From a virus, in IMG/VR virus record IMGVR_UViG_3300033485_000002, positions 32,001 to 96,000 of that record: a stretch of 64,000 nt of DNA; one strand, written 5' to 3'. Positions 6,396 through 63,456 of this stretch are shown in pieces; position 1 is the stretch's first letter, and each line of letters opens with the position of its first letter. Below the pieces are notes generated by a model. That model did no database searches. It was not told the origin of the DNA and saw nothing but the letters and a program-made list of their open reading frames with translations. The translations under genes and the position numbers were made by a program.

Positions 6396-6786
6396 CGTTT
6401 TATGGATTCTGGCCCTGATCCCGGTAGCGTTCATCCAGAACATGGTCTTTACGGCAGTCAGTCGTTCCCGTAACAGCGGTGACCCGCAGTACCACAGATG
6501 GTGGGCATATGGTAGCAATAGTGTTTGGCTGCTGTGCCAAGTGTTCATCTGGAAGGGTTTCTGGGGGGCGTTCAATGATGCCGACTACCTGACCATGGTG
6601 GTTATGGCATTCGTCTACATCGTCAGCACGACTGAAGGTTCAGTCGTTATGATGCGACGGATGCTCAAGACGGAGACCGGGGCACGTAAGGTCGGAGCCA
6701 ATCCGAATGAAGTCAAAGTTCAACAGATAGAAGTGGATATGGCTACCTTGAAAAAACGGATCACTGAACTTGAAGAGTGCTGGTAG
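6382..6786 (+). CDS. Membrane protein (about 3 TM segments)
   Basis: GTG start after GGAGG; hydrophobic segments; short coiled-coil tail. Confidence 0.65.
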   Translation: MTWSDVLWILALIPVAFIQNMVFTAVSRSRNSGDPQYHRWWAYGSNSVWLLCQVFIWKGFWGAFNDADYLTMVVMAFVYIVSTTEGSVVMMRRMLKTETGARKVGANPNEVKVQQIEVDMATLKKRITELEECW

Positions 6787-6864
6787 GAAAACCCGGATGG
6801 GGTGGTTGCCTTCTGAAAAATAGTCGTGTATATTTGTTCCTGTGAGGTTCACAGGAGGTACGTA

Positions 6865-7227
6865 ATGAACACGACGACACTTAGGGATTACATCTACTCC
6901 GAGTCTGCCAAAGTGTTCGATCCCCCAATGACGCGGCAGGACGTGTCATCGTTGATCGACATTTTCCTTGATGGATTGGCGGCGGGTCTCTCGGGAAAGA
7001 TCACGGATGCTGAAGGTGAGGAAGACGGTATCAACAAGGTGCTGCTTCGTAGCTTCGGCACCTTCAAGGTGGTCAAGCGCCGTGGGCGCACGTATAGCGT
7101 CCGGGGCAAGGAAGTCAAGGTCGGTGATCGTTTCACGGTTGTCTTCAAGCCGGGAGCGGACCTCGTCCGGATGCTTGAAACCATGACCCCGGAGAGCGAA
7201 CCGGCACCTCCTATTCAGCAGCCGTAG
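6865..7227 (+). CDS. HU/IHF-like DNA-binding protein
   Basis: VLLRSFGTFKVVKRRGR...VVFKPGADL signature; AGGAGG RBS. Confidence 0.85.
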   Translation: MNTTTLRDYIYSESAKVFDPPMTRQDVSSLIDIFLDGLAAGLSGKITDAEGEEDGINKVLLRSFGTFKVVKRRGRTYSVRGKEVKVGDRFTVVFKPGADLVRMLETMTPESEPAPPIQQP

Positions 7228-9722: not shown

Positions 9723-10708
9723 TGTACACCGATGATCTTCCTCCGTACGCAGATAAGGATCCTGATTACGCTGTCCTCAAGGATCCTGATGAGATCGTGG
9801 TGCTCCGCATGCTCAAGACCTACGAGGATCTGATCCTCCGGTACACGAGCAAATCCCCCCTTGTCTACAATAACTTCAATGGCACTGATAACTTCCGTAA
9901 GTCTAGGGCATACAAACCCATGTGCCGTTTGGCGGGGAAAATTCGCACCGCCAAGATAGCGGACCCGGCCCACTTCATTGCGTTCATCTTCGAGCTTTGG
10001 GCGACTCAGCCGAAGCAGCATGAGCGTAAGTTTCAAATGCGGAAGAAAGGGATGGGACAGTTTCAAGGCTCGGGGGTGGACTACCCTTCGCTGAAGTACA
10101 TCGTTGACTGCGGGGATGCGCTGCTGCAAGAGTTTGCCGCCATCACTAACTATAAGCCGACGCACTTCATGCCGAGGGACGACTATGCCAACCGTGACCG
10201 GCAGATGATCCGGAACATGGTGGATCGATGGTGCGAGATGGAGGGTAAGACACCTGCGGACTACTGGACGACGCCTCAGCATCTGCGGGACTTGGAGTGG
10301 AAGTACATCGATTACGCGGACTCGTTGTGGGAGTGTGATGCCCTGATCCAGGAGAAATTCGGATTTAGTGTACAGGAGATGAAGGAGTACCTCATCGAGA
10401 GGGAAAGGGTCACTAGGGAGTACTTCGAAACCCACCCTCCGATCCCGTTCAAGCACATCACCGTGTTGGATTGGGAGGAAGAGAACGAGGTCGATCAGGA
10501 GCGGATCGACCGGTACCAGCAGGCCATCGAACAGGGTATCGACGTTACGACCGAAGAATTTCAGAAAGGCGTAGAAGATACTGTAAACCCCATTGACATA
10601 GATCATCCGGATACGCTCGCTTGGTATTTCTTTGGTATCGGCCAGCCACGTCGTCGGGATGGGGAGGAGATAGACGTTGCCGAAGATTTTGGAACTTCTG
10701 ACGGATGA
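9722..10708 (+). CDS. Hypothetical replication-module protein (possible helicase loader)
   Basis: 328 aa, translationally coupled between two helicase genes. Function inferred from position only. Confidence 0.55.
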   Translation: MYTDDLPPYADKDPDYAVLKDPDEIVVLRMLKTYEDLILRYTSKSPLVYNNFNGTDNFRKSRAYKPMCRLAGKIRTAKIADPAHFIAFIFELWATQPKQHERKFQMRKKGMGQFQGSGVDYPSLKYIVDCGDALLQEFAAITNYKPTHFMPRDDYANRDRQMIRNMVDRWCEMEGKTPADYWTTPQHLRDLEWKYIDYADSLWECDALIQEKFGFSVQEMKEYLIERERVTREYFETHPPIPFKHITVLDWEEENEVDQERIDRYQQAIEQGIDVTTEEFQKGVEDTVNPIDIDHPDTLAWYFFGIGQPRRRDGEEIDVAEDFGTSDG

Positions 10709-14631: not shown

Positions 14632-14800
14632 TTCCGGGAGAGGTTTTTTGCGTCATACCGGAGCTGATTCTGGGAGTCCCAGAACCCGTTCTGGGACAGT
14701 TAAGTGCTTGAAAACACATCGTTTCTGGGAATCTAGGAGCCATTATTTTGAAAAGCGTTTTAGGGGGGGTCGGGGCGGGGGGGTCGGGTAGGGTTGGGCA
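14632..14800. repeat. TTCTGGGA repeats, IHF-like site and G-run tract (putative packaging/terminus region)
   Basis: TTCTGGGA at 14668, 14689 and 14723, inverted copy at 14677, variant at 14632; TAAGTGCTTGAAA at 14701; G-tracts at 14763-14798. Confidence 0.45.
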
Positions 14801-15072
14801 CTCGCGGAGAATCATTCAACACGCCTGAAAAGCCTATCGTGGCTTATGCTTTCTCAGGACGGGCGAGATGGTAGAGAATGGGCATAGGCACGGGAGCGCC
14901 CGCTCCCGCGTGTCAGAGAGATCCTCGGCTCTCTCTGCGTCTCTGCGTCGCATTTCCCCCGACTGCCACAACTGTGGGTGGTTCTGCTCCAAGCGCCGGG
15001 AATTCACTCCGGCCTGGGGGTGGGGTACGCCCACGCAACCGGCAACCTCGTTGCCAGAAGGAAAGGTCCGCT

Positions 15073-15975: not shown

Positions 15976-15976
15976 A

Positions 15977-16037
15977 GGCGAAACGGGGCGAAAGCCCCGT
16001 TGTACCGGGTGGTTCCCGGTACCTGATGAGCCAGCCG
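15977..16037 (+). ncRNA. Hammerhead ribozyme, type II topology
   Basis: GGC-GAAAC-GGGGC gaaa GCCCC-GUU(cleavage after 16001)-GUACCGGG ugguu CCCGGUAC-CUGAUGA-GCC. The catalytic core is complete, and loop I can pair with the 3' AGCCG. Confidence 0.88.
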
Positions 16038-16067
16038 CTCGACTTCGTCTTTGAAAGGGGTATGCCT

Positions 16068-31969: not shown

Positions 31970-33829
31970 ATGCGCTCACTGTCAGTGACCCAGGGTGTTG
32001 TACTGGACCCGTTTTCGATTCTTGCCTCGGGGGTGATGCGCCAGCATGGAGGGCTGAAGATCACGGGCGATCTGGACTGCCTGCACGGAGAAGCCAGATT
32101 CAAACAAGCGTTTGTCAATGCGTGCTACTTCGCTGAGTCGATGACCGTGGTAGGACCGATCGCTCAGCTTATCCAGGAGCATACGGACCCTGCAACGCAC
32201 GCAGCGCTGGCATGGCGGGCAACTCCGACGACTGGGGATAACCGTGACTTCTTCAACCAGTTGAAGCAGTTCATGGCCCAGAATAACCTGGACAAGATCC
32301 CCTCGGATCTGATCTTCGGTTCCATGTCGGACGTGGACTATCGGCTGCATACGATGCCGGATGTGACGTTGGGGCATAAGCGCAACGACTATGGCTCGGA
32401 TGACTTCCAGTCGAGGCTGTTCGAGCAGCTCTTTCAGAGCACGTGGCGGCAGTTCCGGATCGACTCTAGAGCGCGGGCTTTGAGGCCGAATCTGGACCAG
32501 TCGTTCTTCACGTATAGACCGGAATCGATCATTAAGGGCAGTCCGGTATCGGCACTGATGGCGGTGATCTTCACCTTCAAGAAGCCGGTGGGGCCTCTGG
32601 CGGTGGGAGAGCTGACCAATCTGGCATCGTGGCCACCCGTGGTGTTCCTGCTGCCGGTGTTGGCTCCGGCGTTCGCTTCCATTGATGATGACGATGTCTA
32701 CCATAGCCCAGCGGGGGCAGTGGTCCGGAATCAACCGGCGATGATGACCTATCAGCTCCGGATTCCGGAGAGCAACAAGGTGAGGAACCATACGCTGCCT
32801 TATGGTCAGCCGTATCGGTTGTCCTCGGTGCATTCGTGGGGCAAGGAGCCGGATACGCTGCGGTCGCTGTCGGACGTGTTCAAGGCTCTGTGGTCGCAGG
32901 CCGCGCAGTACTCAGCCTGGAATCTTCGGTATGAGTGGGACGCGAAGGCGACCTCGTTGCCGGTCGGAGAGCTGGCTCTGGATCCGATCGGAGCCGGTCG
33001 GCGTATCCGGAGTCATAACCGGTTCTCCGGCAGGTATCCGCTGCACGCTCCGGCGATGCTGTGGGAGACGGGGATCTATAGCGTATCGGGAGGTAGTGCT
33101 CCGAGGCTGTGGGGTTGGGAACCTGAGCGAGGTGAGAGTCAGTACATGGATTTCGTTCACCGAGCGCATCTGTTCACGAATCAGCTTCGCTCGTATCGTA
33201 GTGGTGGTGGCAAGGAGTTCCTGTTCGTCTTTCCGAGCTACTTCCAAGAGGAAGTGAGCGATCACTTCCTGCCGACTGCTATCACCTTGGCTCGTTGGAT
33301 GCTGGTGAAGCACGCCGGGTTGGAGGACTTCGTGGACGGGCATGTTGTTGCCACGAATAAGCCGGGGGATGGTGGAGCCACAGCGGAAGAGCTGGCGGCT
33401 GACCCGGAGCTGGAGCCTGGGGTTGGCGGACGGTCTCTTGCGGATCGGCTGGCCGATCACCTGGGACAACAGAATATGCAGAACGAGGGTGCGCTGCCGG
33501 TGCATCGGGTGAAAACGCCTATCGGTTTCGATAAGACCGGTGACCCGACTGTGTTCGGGCTGGCGGTTGATACGACTGCCGAAAACGTGATGCACTATCA
33601 CGAAGCGCACAACGGTATCAACATTACCGACGAGAACCTGGAGAAGATGGTCAACGGTGTCCAGGTCCAGGGTAACTTCAAGTTCCTCGATGCTTTCTGC
33701 TCCAAGAGCACGAAGGATCTGACGGACGTGTTCGCCACCGTGAGCAAGAAAGCCGTGTCGAAGATGCGGGCTGGCGAACTCGTGGACGAGAGCATGGTGG
33801 TCGATCTGTTCGACGACATGCTGGACTAA
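31970..33829 (+). CDS. Hypothetical protein (619 aa)
   Basis: Long ORF directly following the cobT-like gene. Confidence 0.75.
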   Translation: MRSLSVTQGVVLDPFSILASGVMRQHGGLKITGDLDCLHGEARFKQAFVNACYFAESMTVVGPIAQLIQEHTDPATHAALAWRATPTTGDNRDFFNQLKQFMAQNNLDKIPSDLIFGSMSDVDYRLHTMPDVTLGHKRNDYGSDDFQSRLFEQLFQSTWRQFRIDSRARALRPNLDQSFFTYRPESIIKGSPVSALMAVIFTFKKPVGPLAVGELTNLASWPPVVFLLPVLAPAFASIDDDDVYHSPAGAVVRNQPAMMTYQLRIPESNKVRNHTLPYGQPYRLSSVHSWGKEPDTLRSLSDVFKALWSQAAQYSAWNLRYEWDAKATSLPVGELALDPIGAGRRIRSHNRFSGRYPLHAPAMLWETGIYSVSGGSAPRLWGWEPERGESQYMDFVHRAHLFTNQLRSYRSGGGKEFLFVFPSYFQEEVSDHFLPTAITLARWMLVKHAGLEDFVDGHVVATNKPGDGGATAEELAADPELEPGVGGRSLADRLADHLGQQNMQNEGALPVHRVKTPIGFDKTGDPTVFGLAVDTTAENVMHYHEAHNGINITDENLEKMVNGVQVQGNFKFLDAFCSKSTKDLTDVFATVSKKAVSKMRAGELVDESMVVDLFDDMLD

Positions 33830-36939: not shown

Positions 36940-38193
36940 ATGGCTAATCTTACTCCCATCTACGATCACAATTGCACGCTCTGCCCCTTACATAAAGTGC
37001 CGGGGGTTACTTGTTTGTCCGGGATCGGCAACCTGGACGACCCGAGCATCCTTATAGTGGGGGATGGGCCGTCGAAGCAGGAGGTGCTGCTTGGTCGGGC
37101 GTTCGGCGATGAGCGGGGTAGGCTGCTCGCTCAGTCGCTCGATGAGATCGGTTTCCCCATCGGGCCTAAAGGCGATGTGTTTGCTACCTACGCCGTTAAG
37201 TGCTTCCCGTCTGGTAAGGTAAAGGTTAAGGATGCCAAGATTTGCGCGGCGAAGTATCTCAACCAGGAGATCGACCTTTTCCGCCCGAAGTTGGTTATAG
37301 CGCTGGGTAAAACCGCCCAATATGCCGTCTTGGGTAGTACTGCACCTATCTCTAAAACTAGGGGCAAGCTGTTCCCCTTAGTTCGTACCGACGCAGCAGG
37401 AAATGAGTGGACAACCCAGGTCATGCCGGTGGATCATCCATTCTCTATCCTCACCACACCGGCCAAGCTGGACCCGTGGCTCGCTGATCTGCGGCGGGCT
37501 AAGGCGGTGTTTTATGGCGACGGAAATCCTTACTGGTCGCCGGAGAAGCTGGAGCGGTTTGACTTTAAAGTGATTGATTCTATCGCGCAGTTCAAAGCAG
37601 TTGCACGGGAGCTTATTGCCAAGCACAGGGGCGAGTACCTAGCTATCGACATTGAAGCTAGTGGTGTTGATGAGGCTATGAACGATGATGACTTTCGGGT
37701 TTTCAGCTTGCAGTTCGGGCTTATAGATTTGGAGGGGCGCGAGGAACATCCGGTCTACTTCCTACCCATCCAGTCGGCGGGGTTCCCGTGGACATCTGAG
37801 GCTAAGTGGCTGGATAATACCGCCCGCCTGCTGAATCGGTTTCTGAGCACGGACTACTTCAAGCTGGTGGGGCATAACCTAAAGTACGATTTGAAAGCGC
37901 TTAGACGGATTGGTGTAACTGAAGCATATGCCGTCTATGACACGCTGATGGCATGGTCAATTGCACATGGTGAAGCACCGTTGTCTCTGAAAACAATTGC
38001 TTACGAGGTTAGTGATTTAGGTGGGTACGAAGTCCTTATGGATCAGTACTTTAAGGAGCACGGTACTTATGACGCCCCCCCCGAAATTCTAATCTCGTAC
38101 AGTTGCCTTGATGTTGTGCTTGTGCGCTACCTTTTTAGTGAGCTGTACAAAACGATCCTTCAAGAGAAAAAGCGTGTTAACATTGGAGTATGA
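36940..38193 (+). CDS. polA: DNA polymerase part 1: family-4 UDG-like domain plus 3'-5' exonuclease
   Basis: CTLCPL, IVGDGP..QE, VKCFP, LVIALG and HP; ExoI IDIE, ExoII GHNLKYD, YDTLMA, ExoIII YSCLD. Confidence 0.85.
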   Translation: MANLTPIYDHNCTLCPLHKVPGVTCLSGIGNLDDPSILIVGDGPSKQEVLLGRAFGDERGRLLAQSLDEIGFPIGPKGDVFATYAVKCFPSGKVKVKDAKICAAKYLNQEIDLFRPKLVIALGKTAQYAVLGSTAPISKTRGKLFPLVRTDAAGNEWTTQVMPVDHPFSILTTPAKLDPWLADLRRAKAVFYGDGNPYWSPEKLERFDFKVIDSIAQFKAVARELIAKHRGEYLAIDIEASGVDEAMNDDDFRVFSLQFGLIDLEGREEHPVYFLPIQSAGFPWTSEAKWLDNTARLLNRFLSTDYFKLVGHNLKYDLKALRRIGVTEAYAVYDTLMAWSIAHGEAPLSLKTIAYEVSDLGGYEVLMDQYFKEHGTYDAPPEILISYSCLDVVLVRYLFSELYKTILQEKKRVNIGV

Positions 38194-38204
38194 GCTATTG
38201 TCAT

Positions 38205-38264
38205 GGCTGGGTGCGGTGTGGCGAGGCCAGGTAGGGTATGGCATGGTGTGGCTCGGCAAGGCAG
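38205..38264 (+). repeat. Array of 12 GGY-NN pentamers (candidate VIPR-type guide RNA)
   Basis: GGCTG GGTGC GGTGT GGCGA GGCCA GGTAG GGTAT GGCAT GGTGT GGCTC GGCAA GGCAG. Intergenic, with a possible extended -10 TGTTAACAT at 38175-38183. Confidence 0.85.
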
Positions 38265-38293
38265 GGGAGCCTCGGTTTAGTAAGGGGGTCTAA

Positions 38294-39778
38294 ATGATTC
38301 GGTTCCATTCGGATGCCGAAGGCGGTAGTCCTCGGTGGCTGTGTGATTATCAGTCTCTATTGGTCAATGCTTTTGTCGATATTGAGAGCTGCGGTTTTCC
38401 TTTCGATCCTATTCAACATGCACAGTTTATCGAGAATGCCGAACGTACTTATGCCGAGTACGAACGGCGATTGATGACCAGCCCCCAACTGCAAGCCTAC
38501 ATCCAGCAGAAGGGGCTGCCCGCTACGGGTAAACGGGCGTTTAACCTGTCCTCGGCCACCCAACTCCAGGAGTTCCTCTTCAGCCCGCGTAGTTCAGGGG
38601 GCCTGGAGCTTGTACCCGTAAAGCGCTCTAAGCTGACGGATAAGGCTAGTTCCGACCGAGAGTCCTTGCAGCATTTCGCTCAGGCAGGCAACGCTTTCTG
38701 CTCGGATCTATTGGTGTTACGGAATTTCGGTAAGCTATTGTCGTCGTTTGGTGAGCCGCTCTTAAAGTTCTACTGTCCTCGCACCGGAGCAGTTCACCCG
38801 ACCTACTTCCTGGCCAAGGTGACAGATAGTGCTGGGGTTGCAGGCGGTACTGCGACCGGACGGCTGTCGTGCAAGCACCCCAACATGCAGCAGCTACCGA
38901 AGCGGGATAAAGATGACAAGGGAATTGGGCTGGCGGGGATCGACGTGCGGAAGTCCTTCGTGCCGTTTCCGGGCCACATCCTTATAGAGTGCGACCAGAG
39001 CCAGATCGAGGTGCGGGTCGCCGGGATGTACGCTAAGGATACGACGATGGGTAAGTTCTTCGATGAGGGGGGAGACTTCCACATCCGGGTGGCCTCTCAG
39101 GTGTTCCAACAGGATTTCGATCATATGGTCGAGGTGTTGGCGAATGAGCACCATCCCGAGTACAAGAAGTTCAAGCAATTCCGTACTGCCGCTAAAACCT
39201 TTACCTTTGGTCTGATGTTCGGTATGGGGTTGAATAAGCTGACCAGACAATCCGGGTTGACTGAGGCTGAAGGTAAAGCTTTTATCGATGAGTACTTTGC
39301 TACTTTCCCTCAGTTCGCTTCGTGGCGTGAGGAGATGATTGATTGGGCTACCGAGCACGGATGGGTCCAAACCTTATTCGGGCGTAAAAGAACCATAAAG
39401 ATTAGCGGCTATGAAACGGAGGATGGTCGGGAGGAACGCATTGGCATCAACACTCCGATTCAGAGTGCGGCGGCAGATATTACTCTGTTTGCGCTCAGCC
39501 GGTTGTGGGAGTTCTTGAAGGCCAACGGTTACGGGGCAAAGATTCTTGGCACGGTCCATGACTCTATTATCTTCTCGGTGCCCTACGAGGAGTTCGAGGA
39601 GCTATTACCGGAGATAGCCCGGAGGATGATCCGTCCACCTGGGCTGGAGTGGCTTTTGGATGACGTGCCGATTCCCCTGTCGATTGGCATTGAGGCGGGG
39701 CCTAACCTCAAGGATATGCACAAGTTAGACCTCGATGACGTGCTGACCTGCTCCCTCGACGTAAAGGATTATCTATGA
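38294..39778 (+). CDS. polA: DNA polymerase part 2: family A polymerase domain
   Basis: TATGRLSC..PNMQQLP, motif A DQSQIEVR, motif B RTAAKTFTFG, NTPIQS, motif C TVHDS. Confidence 0.92.
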   Translation: MIRFHSDAEGGSPRWLCDYQSLLVNAFVDIESCGFPFDPIQHAQFIENAERTYAEYERRLMTSPQLQAYIQQKGLPATGKRAFNLSSATQLQEFLFSPRSSGGLELVPVKRSKLTDKASSDRESLQHFAQAGNAFCSDLLVLRNFGKLLSSFGEPLLKFYCPRTGAVHPTYFLAKVTDSAGVAGGTATGRLSCKHPNMQQLPKRDKDDKGIGLAGIDVRKSFVPFPGHILIECDQSQIEVRVAGMYAKDTTMGKFFDEGGDFHIRVASQVFQQDFDHMVEVLANEHHPEYKKFKQFRTAAKTFTFGLMFGMGLNKLTRQSGLTEAEGKAFIDEYFATFPQFASWREEMIDWATEHGWVQTLFGRKRTIKISGYETEDGREERIGINTPIQSAAADITLFALSRLWEFLKANGYGAKILGTVHDSIIFSVPYEEFEELLPEIARRMIRPPGLEWLLDDVPIPLSIGIEAGPNLKDMHKLDLDDVLTCSLDVKDYL

Positions 39779-60500: not shown

Positions 60501-63340
60501 TAAGGGTAGCGGCATCAAGTACGACGCAGATGGCTATGTGGCGGCTGACTATCTCTGTAAGATGTGCAAGGGCACGGGGAGGGTCAAGTGATCCATCAGA
60601 TTAGCTTGGAAGTGGGAGATAAGGTCAAGCTTAACCCGGACATCACAAAGCGCATGAGGTGCATCCAGGACCGAACGTTCAAGCTAGTGATCCCTACTGA
60701 TGTGAAGGAGTGGACGGTCAAGTCGTTGGGGGAAACCATGGTGTCGCTGACTGCCCCAGGGTATGGGGAAAGACCCTATGGCAGCGGGTGTATCACGATG
60801 AACAAGATCGACCTGATCATGGCGATGGAGGACTAATGACCGCAAAAGCTGACGTGCTGGAGTGGCTGACTGAGTGTGCTGAGCAGTATGAGGATGGATT
60901 GTCCAGGGAGGAGCGCAAGAACAAGCGCAAGGTGGCGGCGATGAAAGATAACGTATACCGCGCTGCCATCAAGGAGATCAAGGGGTTGAGGAGGGAGATC
61001 GAGCGCACCGACCTCACCCTGTCCGCGCTGATCACTAAGAACCTCAAGATCCTGGGCATGCTCCGCCTGAATGCTAAGAGCATGGATAAGGTAGACCAGG
61101 AGCTGGAGCACCTGAAGAAGTGGAGCAAGGTGGGCAACTGTTTGATCAGGGTGAGGCAGTCAGATCCTCCGATCCTGGTCAAGCACGAGAACGGAATTAT
61201 TACTGCAAACCTTGATGGCTACGCTATTATCCCAAGGGAGGAGATGTTGTATGGCAGCCCCGATGAACCTGCTGTTTGAGCATCAGGCAAAGGATAAGAT
61301 CTGCCCCATCATCTACATCGGCCAAACCCCAGGGGGATACTGTGTTGGGTCAAGCTGCATGATGTGGCGGTGGGCGGGTGAGCGGGCCGAGGGTGACGCA
61401 GACGTGAAGCACCCGGTGGGCTACTGTGGTCTGTCTGAACTGTCCGAGAGGATTGAATGTCATGAGTAGGGAGAACTTGCTCGAACGGTTGGATAAGAGC
61501 CGGATAGAGGTGGACGACTACTGGAGCTACCTATACGACACGATAGGGGAAGTTCAGGAAGACATCACCACTTTGCGGGAACTGGTGTATGATCTGGTGA
61601 TGCAAACCTGTGCGAGCACCACGGTGCCGGATAAGTTGGACAGCATGGCAATCAGCGCTTATGCGGATGCGATGCGTTACCTGGATACTATCGGGAAGAT
61701 CGTGATCACCGAGGAGCGGGGACGGAGAGTTATTGCCCATCTGCCGGGGGATGACAATGGGGATGCCAATCAAGTCGAAGGGCCACACGACGGAGCATGA
61801 TCTCGGGTGCCTGTGGTGTGTCGTCATATTCTTAGTGCTGGTTGCTGTAGGTGCAGTCATCTACTCGATCATGGGGGTAATGTGAGCGAGTTCGTGCAGG
61901 CGCTGTGGGGTGGCTTCGTGGTCGGGGCGATGATGGGGATGTGCATCGGCATGGTGATGGGCTACAAGCTGGGAAGGGACGACCAATGAGTAAGACGCGG
62001 TTGTGCGATCTATGCGCCTGTCCTATCAAGGACACCAGGAAGAGGATTCGAGTGGTGCCTAAGTTCATCTGGCATCTCCCAACGATAAACGGGGATTTTG
62101 AGGGTAAGCTGGACGTGTGCTATGACTGTTGGTCCTGGTTCAAGCGGTTCATCCAAGAGGGCAAGAAGATCCAGTTTAACCCGGTGGAAGGAGCATTCGA
62201 TGGATCATAAGTCGGTTATGATCGAAAAGGTGGATAATGGCTACGTTATCAGGCTTAATGTGGACGGGCCGATATCGAGTGATTCGGTCACGTATGTTGA
62301 GAAGTTGTGGCTTCAAGCGGCGTGTACGGTGACGGAGTTCTTTGACGAGCAGCTTGCCATCAGCCCGGTAGCGCCACCTATTGTCTCTACCTGGAAGGGT
62401 GAGCCGATCACTGGTCCTCCGGTGTATTCGATTGAGCGGGATGACACGGATCGTTGTTGAGGGGGAGAGATGCCTGATATCACCTGTTGTACGGGGGAAG
62501 GTTGTCCGTTGAAGGATAGCTGTTGGCGCTACACTGCGCCCAAGAATGACTATTGGCAGTCGTATTTCGACTCACCACCATGGGACGAAGAGACATACGA
62601 TTGCAAATACTACTGGCCCCTTGACCCACCGAAGAAGAATGGCACGAAGGTTCCGAAAGGATAGGGGCGTATGAGCGCAGATAACGGCGTGTACATCCTT
62701 TGCACCGAGGGGCCGGAGTACCGGGTTCGCCATCTTCAGGCGGTCGAGAACGTGTACTGGGACGATGAGAAGAAGGAAGAGTGTGACAACCCTGATGTCC
62801 ACATCAAGAACGCTAGGGAGATGTGGAACAATTGTAAGGTATTCACTGATCGCATGCAGGTTTTCGAGGAAGCGAGAAGGATCTATAACGAGATCATGAG
62901 TGACGACTTCTGCCCGGTTTGTGAATACGGCATCTGCACTATTTTGGTCCCGAGGAAGTTTTAAGAGGAGGGGGAGTTATGCTGTGGTTTATCCTGGGTA
63001 TTGCCGTGGGCATCATCGCTTATCAGTACTTTCTCGAACATCCTGATAAGGTCAAGGCTACCTTCAGCAAGCTGTGGCAGATCATCAAGGCTCCCTTCCA
63101 GAAGAAACGCTGATGATCTGGCTCATTTACTTCGTTGGAGTCGGGGTAGCGTTGATCGCGTGTCTGTACTGCATAAGTGTCGTTTTTGACATGGGTCCGC
63201 TGCAAGCTGAAGACACTCTGATGGCTATGATTGCCGCAGTAGTTTGGCCGGTCATTCTTGTGGTCTTCGTGTTCTGGGCCTTCTGTGAGGGGATTGCGAT
63301 AACGTGGAACATGCTCAGTGCGTACTATCGGGGCCGTTAG
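54539..63340 (+). other. Long array of about 30 small hypothetical CDSs, e.g. 54539-54940, 54945-55631, 55638-55871, 55871-56392, 56409-56648, 57138-57575, 57575-57787, 60109-60591 (DnaJ-type CxxCxGxG), 60836-61279, 62470-62664, 62671-62964, 63113-63340
   Basis: Dense coupled + strand ORFs; several zinc-ribbon or membrane proteins. Confidence 0.6.
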
Positions 63341-63406
63341 CTCAGTTGGTAGAGCATTTGTCTTACACGCAAGTGGTCGCTGGTTCAAGTCCAGCACGGC
63401 CCACCA
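63331..63406 (+). tRNA. trnV: tRNA-Val (anticodon TAC) with encoded CCA
   Basis: GGGCCGT/ACGGCCC acceptor stem, GCTC/GAGC D-arm, CTTACAC anticodon loop, GCTGG-TTCAAGT-CCAGC T-arm, ACCA end. Confidence 0.95.
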
Positions 63407-63427: not shown

Positions 63428-63456
63428 TTGACAACATCGACCACTTCACCTATCTT
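63428..63456 (+). promoter_or_regulatory. Sigma70-type promoter
   Basis: TTGACA-17 nt-TATCTT, then AGGAGG RBS at 63463. Confidence 0.8.

Follow-up and report, generated by a model that had tools for sequence, protein, structure and literature searches.

A solitary VIPR-type guide array in the split polymerase operon of an uncultured phage, probably aimed at the orthologous exonuclease gene of its relatives

What is a flawless run of twelve pentamers doing between the two genes of a split DNA polymerase, and why does it resemble, once decoded, a short segment of the gene just upstream of it? The locus that raises this question belongs to IMG/VR record IMGVR_UViG_3300033485_000002, a viral record of 168,260 bases with an estimated completeness of 77%, from which a stretch of 64,000 nucleotides (positions 32,001 to 96,000) was analysed; we call this stretch the window, and coordinates refer to it unless the record is named. 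The pentamer array fills most of a 100-nt gap between two open reading frames (ORFs), one at 36940-38193 encoding a UDG-like domain and a 3'-5' exonuclease, and one at 38294-39778 encoding the polymerase domain. An initial annotation, made from the letters of the window alone, proposed that the array guides an attack on the polymerase allele of a competing relative. We think, with a probability of about 0.7 and on the basis of sequence comparison, that the array is a stand-alone guide of the VIPR type (a solo vrRNA) aimed at the polymerase operon of relatives and kept beside an allele that resists it; it is probably a weapon against close relatives.

VIPR systems were described only in 2026. 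They comprise Vipr, which is a small RAMP protein, the accessory gene vap, and vrRNAs built from 9-16 GGY/NN repeats, the NN dinucleotides of which pair with double-stranded DNA in such a way that every third target base is skipped, a rule that has been established experimentally; the skipped bases usually fall on codon wobble positions, and binding of the Vipr-vrRNA complex silences transcription from either strand (bioRxiv 10.64898/2026.04.26.720920). In the same study the natural targets were competing mobile elements, a target was called when at least 80% of the NN bases matched, no self match reached 80%, and perturbing the NN pairing abolished silencing (10.64898/2026.04.26.720920). Cryo-EM revealed one Vipr protomer per GGY, twelve protomers thus covering a twelve-unit guide, and in the only system with a structural study the R-loop begins to form from the vrRNA's 3' end (10.64898/2026.04.26.720927); the VIPR preprints contain no mismatch series. 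Natural targets known so far are satellites, prophage regulators and rival VIPR loci. Satellites also carry solo vrRNAs that hijack the Vipr of another element. Solo vrRNAs mostly target vipr genes, vrRNAs or satellites, and those aimed at vrRNAs score lower against self than against the rival (10.64898/2026.10.15.759431).

Judged by its repeat structure, the array is a solo vrRNA of this kind. Its pentamers, twelve in number or thirteen if the adjoining GGGAG (38265-69) is counted, join a conserved GGY to a hypervariable NN and lie within the published range of 9-16 units. It is the sole perfect GGY run of such length in the whole 168-kb record, and at 38205-38264 it stands 25 kb from the start of vipr (63477), apart from the vipr-vap-array locus of the same phage, which supplies a Vipr-like RAMP, an accessory gene and further guides. 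The sequence is identical, with 0 other letters, in Logan contigs from runs of two further studies; freshwater and wetland runs of several studies and years carry it unchanged. (Contigs of three DNA runs leave 37943-37996 uncovered; this proves nothing and was not used.) Standard tools do not see such an element: TRF found no repeat at the array because only three of five positions repeat, and Rfam holds no family for such pentamer arrays. A scan of viral contigs returned at least 120 loci with nine GGYNN units, many with tandem arrays and mostly closed in several frames, so we place the array in a widespread non-coding class. Two early ideas, a binding site for a TRAP-like ring protein and a set of two-tier G-quadruplexes, were dropped once the VIPR preprints were found.

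What would such a guide bind? The NN dinucleotides were read in reverse-complement order with one skipped base between them, and since the 1-nt skip is the experimentally established VIPR rule, this decoding was not a free choice. The guide then spells L-F-D-T-(M/I)-(M/I)-L-W-S-T-A-H, and the gapped pattern that the initial annotation had worked out by hand is reproduced exactly. Its counterpart next door, codons 332-343 of the exonuclease gene (37933-37968), agrees at 18 of 24 bases (75%) and at 7 of 12 whole dinucleotides, which leaves six mismatches; all skipped bases fall on third codon positions of the ORF, and the site ends 237 bp upstream of the array. These scores, the codon phase and the distance of about 240 bp stand as they were first given. 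Moreover, the site is the single best match on both strands of the window, where the next best reaches 16, and in the whole record. When the NN order was shuffled, 3.0% of 1000 guides reached 18 or more somewhere in the window, close to the expectation of about 0.05 calculated earlier, and when skips of 0, 2 or 3 bases were imposed on the real guide, only 15-16 were obtained outside the array itself.

The initial annotation went further and claimed that the guide is aimed at the orthologous allele of relatives while self is spared. Among 21 relatives (53-70% identity) the consensus at residues 332-343 is x-W-D-T-M-M-L-W-A-N-A-H, and when the guide was scored against five loci of relatives covering both genes, its top match was the homologous exonuclease site in four (scores in Table 1). 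Read as D-T-M-M-L-W-S-x-A-H after an initial L-F, the guide follows this conserved segment as related phages have it, not as the carrier does. A cut-off at 80% of the NN bases is passed by two of them, L170 and L171, at 83%, and not by self at 75%. When 5000 shuffled guides were run over five exonuclease-polymerase loci, 14.5 kb in all, the highest score was 19, obtained by two of them. The relatives that have the exonuclease-polymerase gene pair carry no array at its junction, and no homologue of vipr or vap and no pentamer array occurs in either of two large relative records, which are 81% and 75% complete. To the extent that sequence can decide, this part of the claim holds, in that relatives without the array match at 19-20/24 as against 75% for self; the gain over self is not significant when taken alone, as we explain below.

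The way in which the carrier's own allele departs from its family is suggestive in the same direction, though not decisive as evidence for self-sparing. M336 and L338 are kept in all 21 relatives, and the carrier has L336 and A338; M336L alters a first codon base and L338A alters both paired bases, while the guide carries the family's bases at both positions. Since the closest relative, P0122, keeps M-M-L, both substitutions are derived in the lineage of the carrier. More broadly, conservation in relatives reaches 90% or more at 131 columns; the carrier deviates at 12 of these, and M336L and L338A are the ones inside the 12-codon site. As a side observation on this gene, a 362-nt wetland contig is identical to window 37705-37921, and its upstream 145 nt diverge and encode the relatives' D-F-K-V, not the carrier's D-F-R-V, which hints at a mosaic relative living in the same habitat, its breakpoint falling within the exonuclease gene.

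How might such a guide work? We suppose that the solo vrRNA would be transcribed together with the polymerase operon, that each GGY would be gripped by one Vipr protomer, and that about 12 protomers would form a filament presenting the 12 NN dinucleotides. In a mixed infection the complex would bind a 35-bp site in the 3' third of the rival's exonuclease gene, where the guide would pair with the coding strand, the published system silencing coding as well as template strand. The resulting roadblock would cut the exonuclease transcript short and deprive the polymerase gene downstream of transcription, to the presumed benefit of the carrier. The carrier would be spared because its own allele has six mismatches, two of which, at L338A, take out a complete dinucleotide in mid-guide, and these six would keep self below the level at which natural targets are called, and presumably below that needed for binding.

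Several points weigh against this reading and should be set beside it. The initial annotation expected near-perfect matches in the polA exonuclease genes of related phages, and these did not turn up: 20/24 is the ceiling at protein level among 27 family proteins, no site exceeds it among these proteins and the six relative loci scored, and a 24/24 site is absent from viral contigs, from JGI metagenome contigs and from the genomes of 185,579 species. A 20-base core pattern covering codons 3-12 had no match in the collections searched, and one covering codons 1-10 had a single match, out of phase, in an unrelated DEDDh exonuclease gene. This match (L272:8983-9018), on a 47.8-kb contig of an unrelated virus, scores 21/24 against the whole guide, more than any relative, with the skips on codon position 1, and is consistent with chance at this database size. 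Indeed, a 12-unit guide holds 48 bits in 24 bases, too little to prevent chance matches of 80-88% in searches of whole databases; the binomial chance of at least 21/24 is about 2e-10 per site, and such matches are expected in collections of 1e10-1e11 bases (our estimate of their size). Chance matches being expected database-wide, the case rests on a restricted search space, the neighbouring gene and its orthologues. A metagenome scan for additional relatives retrieved only distant PolA genes (at most 30% identity), with a best score of 18/24 in 355 kb.

The 80% level itself is passed marginally: with the GGGAG unit added, the relatives stand at 21/26 (81%) and self at 18/26 (69%), and when the handle-proximal AT is counted in its place, the relatives fall to 77%, with self at 69%. 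Given the 18/24 self match, the relatives regain 3 of 5 informative mismatched bases as against 1.7 expected (P ~0.2), and the enrichment of carrier-specific substitutions in the site has a hypergeometric P of 0.09. In addition, the two codons facing the 3'-most units of the guide are mismatched in every relative sampled. As these mismatches lie at the guide's 3' end, where the R-loop starts in the studied system, the true target may be an unsampled lineage with L-F at these two codons. Finally, the scaffold of the solo unit is GGY in 12 of 12 pentamers versus 34 of 74 (46%) in the phage's main array, although 72 of the 74 main-array triplets start with G, and its 3' side (GGG-AGCC-T-CGG) fits the loose boundary pattern and lacks the GGCTGTC handle. 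Given this difference in scaffold, loading of the solo unit by the phage's Vipr is no more than presumed.

These difficulties feed three other explanations. According to one of them the array is a functional solo vrRNA whose real target, a satellite, another phage or a rival VIPR locus, has not been sampled, and its likeness to the exonuclease gene is a coincidence. The shuffled guides that equal the self score in the window belong here, as do those that reach 19 in whole genomes, the relatives' non-significant gain and the 21/24 match in an unrelated virus; the usual targets of published solo vrRNAs, and the phage's main-array guides, for which no target could be detected in self or in two relatives, point the same way. 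We nevertheless regard coincidence as unlikely, because a chance match would need, in addition, to lie no more than 240 bp from the array (about 1% of the window) and to be in wobble phase (1 in 3), because the guide's departures from self lean to the family residues at two positions invariant in relatives, and because none of 5000 shuffles reached the 20/24 that is seen twice in relatives' loci. Nor does the repeat by its nature generate such likeness: 115 arrays in clustered VIPR loci of other viruses have no excess of local near-matches (0 of 115 at P <=0.01), so that a local near-match is not a by-product of the repeat. Among the solo arrays of other viruses, a local near-match at P <=0.05 occurs in 2 of 15, too few to say whether the layout is general. 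In another virus (L038), a solo 14-unit array at 9846-9915 has its best local match at 9941-9981 (21/28, P = 0.003 by shuffling), 25 nt downstream of the array, just past a terminator-like hairpin and in apparently non-coding DNA.

A unit that is inactive or foreign, be it a relic, an acquired vrRNA not loaded by this Vipr or a decoy for a rival's Vipr, would account for the scaffold difference and for the 3' boundary without GGCTGTC, and has a precedent in the satellites whose solo vrRNAs exploit another element's Vipr. We find it improbable, more so than coincidence: the twelve units are flawless and identical across runs of several studies and years, GGT and GGC belong to the triplets used most often in the main array, which has the 5' TGTCA motif in common with the solo unit, and related Vipr loci are mostly built on GGC/GGT scaffolds. 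All eight unit starts of the main array read (G/A)(G/A)CTGTC, followed by a mostly A-initial dinucleotide, A(C/T/A), and GGT, the solo start reads TTGTC-AT-GGC, a boundary pattern NGNC-A-NGG is common to the loci of related Vipr proteins, and GGG triplets such as that of the possible thirteenth unit also occur in the main array. The last alternative, which the initial annotation had also named, is autoregulation, that is, weak binding of the Vipr-vrRNA complex to the phage's own exonuclease gene that would tune its own polymerase operon. One operon does contain both guide and site, separated by 237 bp, the transcript to be throttled would itself yield the vrRNA, and VIPR silences from either strand. 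Against this, published silencing was lost when NN pairing was perturbed and no natural self match reached 80%, relatives run the same operon without an array, and at residues that do not vary among relatives the carrier's allele has diverged from the guide, contrary to what a maintained regulatory site would lead one to expect; we therefore hold autoregulation to be the least probable of all, and very unlikely.

If the array is indeed a solo vrRNA directed at relatives and kept beside a resistant allele, one can ask whether guide and allele form a unit. Tentatively, and with less than even odds in our opinion, the two may be a selfish cassette of two parts, in which a guide linked to an immune allele silences an essential gene of the rival during mixed infection and spreads by recombination with the resistant segment. 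Here the cassette would consist of exonuclease codons 332-343 and the array 237 bp downstream, and by analogy it might be an RNA-guided counterpart of homing-endonuclease marker exclusion. If this were true, M336L and L338A, at positions invariant in relatives, would be the cost of immunity.

Table 1. Coordinates of the features discussed, and guide scores in relatives (window coordinates unless the record is named)
Feature	Position	Strand	Basis or score
UDG-like domain + 3'-5' exonuclease gene, first half of split family A polymerase	36940..38193	+	PF03167 (3.9e-20), PF01612 (1.7e-11)
Own near-target, codons 332-343 of UDG-exonuclease gene (V-Y-D-T-L-M-A-W-S-I-A-H)	37933..37968	+	18/24 to guide
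5' handle-like motif TTGTC + AT, directly ahead of first GGY unit	38198..38204	+	likeness to main-array unit starts
Solo vrRNA guide, 12 GGY/NN pentamers	38205..38264	+	12/12 perfect units, 9 different NN
Possible 13th unit GGGAG + 3' boundary (GGG-AGCC-T-CGG; handle-like, not GGCTGTC)	38265..38275	+	boundary inferred
Family A polymerase domain gene, second half of split polymerase	38294..39778	+	PF00476 (2.8e-74)
Promoter-like TTGACA-17-TATCTT ahead of vipr	63428..63456	+	read from sequence
vipr gene, 260 amino acids	63477..64000, runs 259 bases beyond window end	+	AF2 model, structural matches
Accessory gene, 159 amino acids, then 8-unit guide array	past window end; array = record 96766-97400	+	sequence parse
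Relative locus L128, homologous exonuclease site			19/24
Relative locus L129, homologous exonuclease site			16/24, only ties best score of its 139.5-kb record
Relative locus L170, homologous exonuclease site			20/24 (83%), codon phase
Relative locus L171, homologous exonuclease site			20/24 (83%), codon phase
Relative locus L273, short contig, homologous exonuclease site			16/24, top match

Does the phage possess the protein that the guide would need? Pfam finds no domain in its 260-residue Vipr-like protein, nor in the family of more than 1200 proteins of about 255 amino acids to which it belongs. An AF2 model from the single sequence was useless (pLDDT 40); with a 50-sequence alignment the pLDDT rose to 82.7, and the model matches Csm3/Cas7 chains of type III and type VII CRISPR complexes (E ~1e-5, probability 1.00), by which structural likeness the protein is a Vipr-type RAMP. 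The roughly 650 nt of non-coding DNA after the 159-residue gene parse into eight guide units, with 74 triplets in all (GGT 27, GAT 13, GGA 9, GTT 7, GGC 7, GTC 4, and others; 34 of them GGY) and with register shifts in units 5-7. Guides u1-u4 and u8, the five that parse cleanly, gave no match above shuffled controls in self or in two relative genomes. The locus is flanked by tRNA genes, Val upstream (63331-63403 by Rfam, 63331-63406 by ARAGORN), and Leu and Lys directly after the last guide unit (record 97412-97569). Some VIPR types have hammerhead-interspersed vrRNA arrays (VIPR preprint); in the window, a type II hammerhead ribozyme at 15976-16040 (+; 44.9 bits, Rfam gathering score 37) lies 22 kb from the solo guide and outside any array. 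A G-rich tract at 14763-14801 (+), with GG(G/T/C) every 5 nt over 7 units and without the TGTC handle, could be a degenerate guide-like unit or a G-quadruplex former.

The setting of the array also needs explanation, because a split polymerase gene might be thought to result from the insertion. This is not the case: a stand-alone polymerase domain of about 490-500 amino acids is found in about 34 relatives of the carrier, and the split is ancestral in the family. Both halves are complete separate genes in the carrier as in the relatives, in which they often overlap. The Rfam scan of the window gave no intron at threshold, the 100-nt gap has no ORF with a function of its own, and the polymerase junction contains neither an endonuclease ORF nor a self-splicing intron or intein. 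A frameshift or bypass signal joining the halves was considered and rejected, since relatives encode them separately and no fusion is needed; for the same reason we read as coincidence an ORF (38108-38293) that crosses the array in the polA frame, parted from polA at 38294 only by a TAA (38291-38293). As for affiliation, blastn found no match among GenBank phages, and tblastn found SPO1-like polymerases only, at 23-32% identity.

The junction differs between relatives. In L171, L273 and the contigs of P0122 and P0001 the exonuclease and polymerase genes overlap; in L170 (5092-5520), the contig of P0134 and L007 (3550-4000)/L128 a 142-155-residue ORF of unknown function lies between them; a vrRNA is found there in the carrier only, among the relatives examined. 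Compared in this way, the exonuclease-polymerase junction is an insertion hot spot. Directly 3' of polA, relative L171 has a NUMOD4/HNH_3 homing-endonuclease-like gene (6675-7217), from which we infer that the polymerase locus gathers selfish elements.

If our preferred reading, that of a solo guide directed at relatives' polymerase operons, is true, it would mean that uncultured phages of about 200 kb in freshwater and wetlands exclude one another directly by means of a VIPR guide against a core replication gene, and that the price of such a guide is visible, the carrier's own exonuclease being changed at two residues that all relatives keep. That the guide adjoins the resistant allele suggests linkage selection, which would explain solo guides scattered through phage genomes and would offer a simple rule for target prediction: look next door.

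How does this array compare with systems already known? As in the characterised VIPR systems (10.64898/2026.04.26.720920, 10.64898/2026.04.26.720927), it has GGY/NN pentamers within the 9-16 range in a phage with a Cas7-like protein and an accessory gene, a 1-nt skip, skips placed on wobble positions, predicted targets in competing phages and a self match below 80%. It differs in that a conserved 3' tail folded as a pseudoknot terminates the type II vrRNAs characterised so far, whereas here a short GGCTGTC-type handle bounds the units, the main array uses a looser G-led triplet (46% GGY), and the solo unit lies 25 kb from vipr, inside the replication operon. With the solo vrRNAs of satellites and SUSP1-family phages (10.64898/2026.10.15.759431) it shares a position away from vipr (or in genomes without it), wobble alignment and a self match below the rival match. 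Those published solos, however, occur either in satellites or, in VIPR-null phages, where vipr used to be, and their targets are vipr genes, other vrRNAs, satellites and host REP decoys; ours is in a VIPR-positive uncultured freshwater/wetland phage, is predicted to target a core replication gene, and adjoins the carrier's diverged copy of it. VIPR itself, solo vrRNAs on phages and satellites, wobble-aligned targeting and self-match below rival-match are therefore already published. Those VIPR papers do not describe a guide aimed at a core replication gene of sister phages, a VIPR-positive phage whose solo guide is remote from its VIPR locus, or a guide that adjoins the carrier's own diverged copy of the target, and the word "polymerase" is absent from 10.64898/2026.10.15.759431.

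Two older systems offer a useful parallel. Virus-borne mini-CRISPR arrays and solitary spacers are reportedly directed against close relatives. The likeness is close in that a minimal guide against the relatives' orthologous gene, mismatched to the carrier's own copy, would serve superinfection exclusion; these arrays use contiguous crRNA pairing and a host or viral Cas effector, whereas here the code is gapped and the effector would be the phage's own Vipr. The other parallel, drawn in the initial annotation, is with I-HmuI and I-HmuII, the homing endonucleases in the SPO1 and SP82 DNA polymerase genes. The mechanism does not carry over: there is no intron and no nuclease here, and what is predicted is RNA-guided binding and silencing rather than cleavage, so no repair-driven copying is implied. 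The logic does carry over, since in both cases a selfish element at a polymerase gene would attack the allele of a related phage, spare its own, and be inherited together with the allele that resists it.

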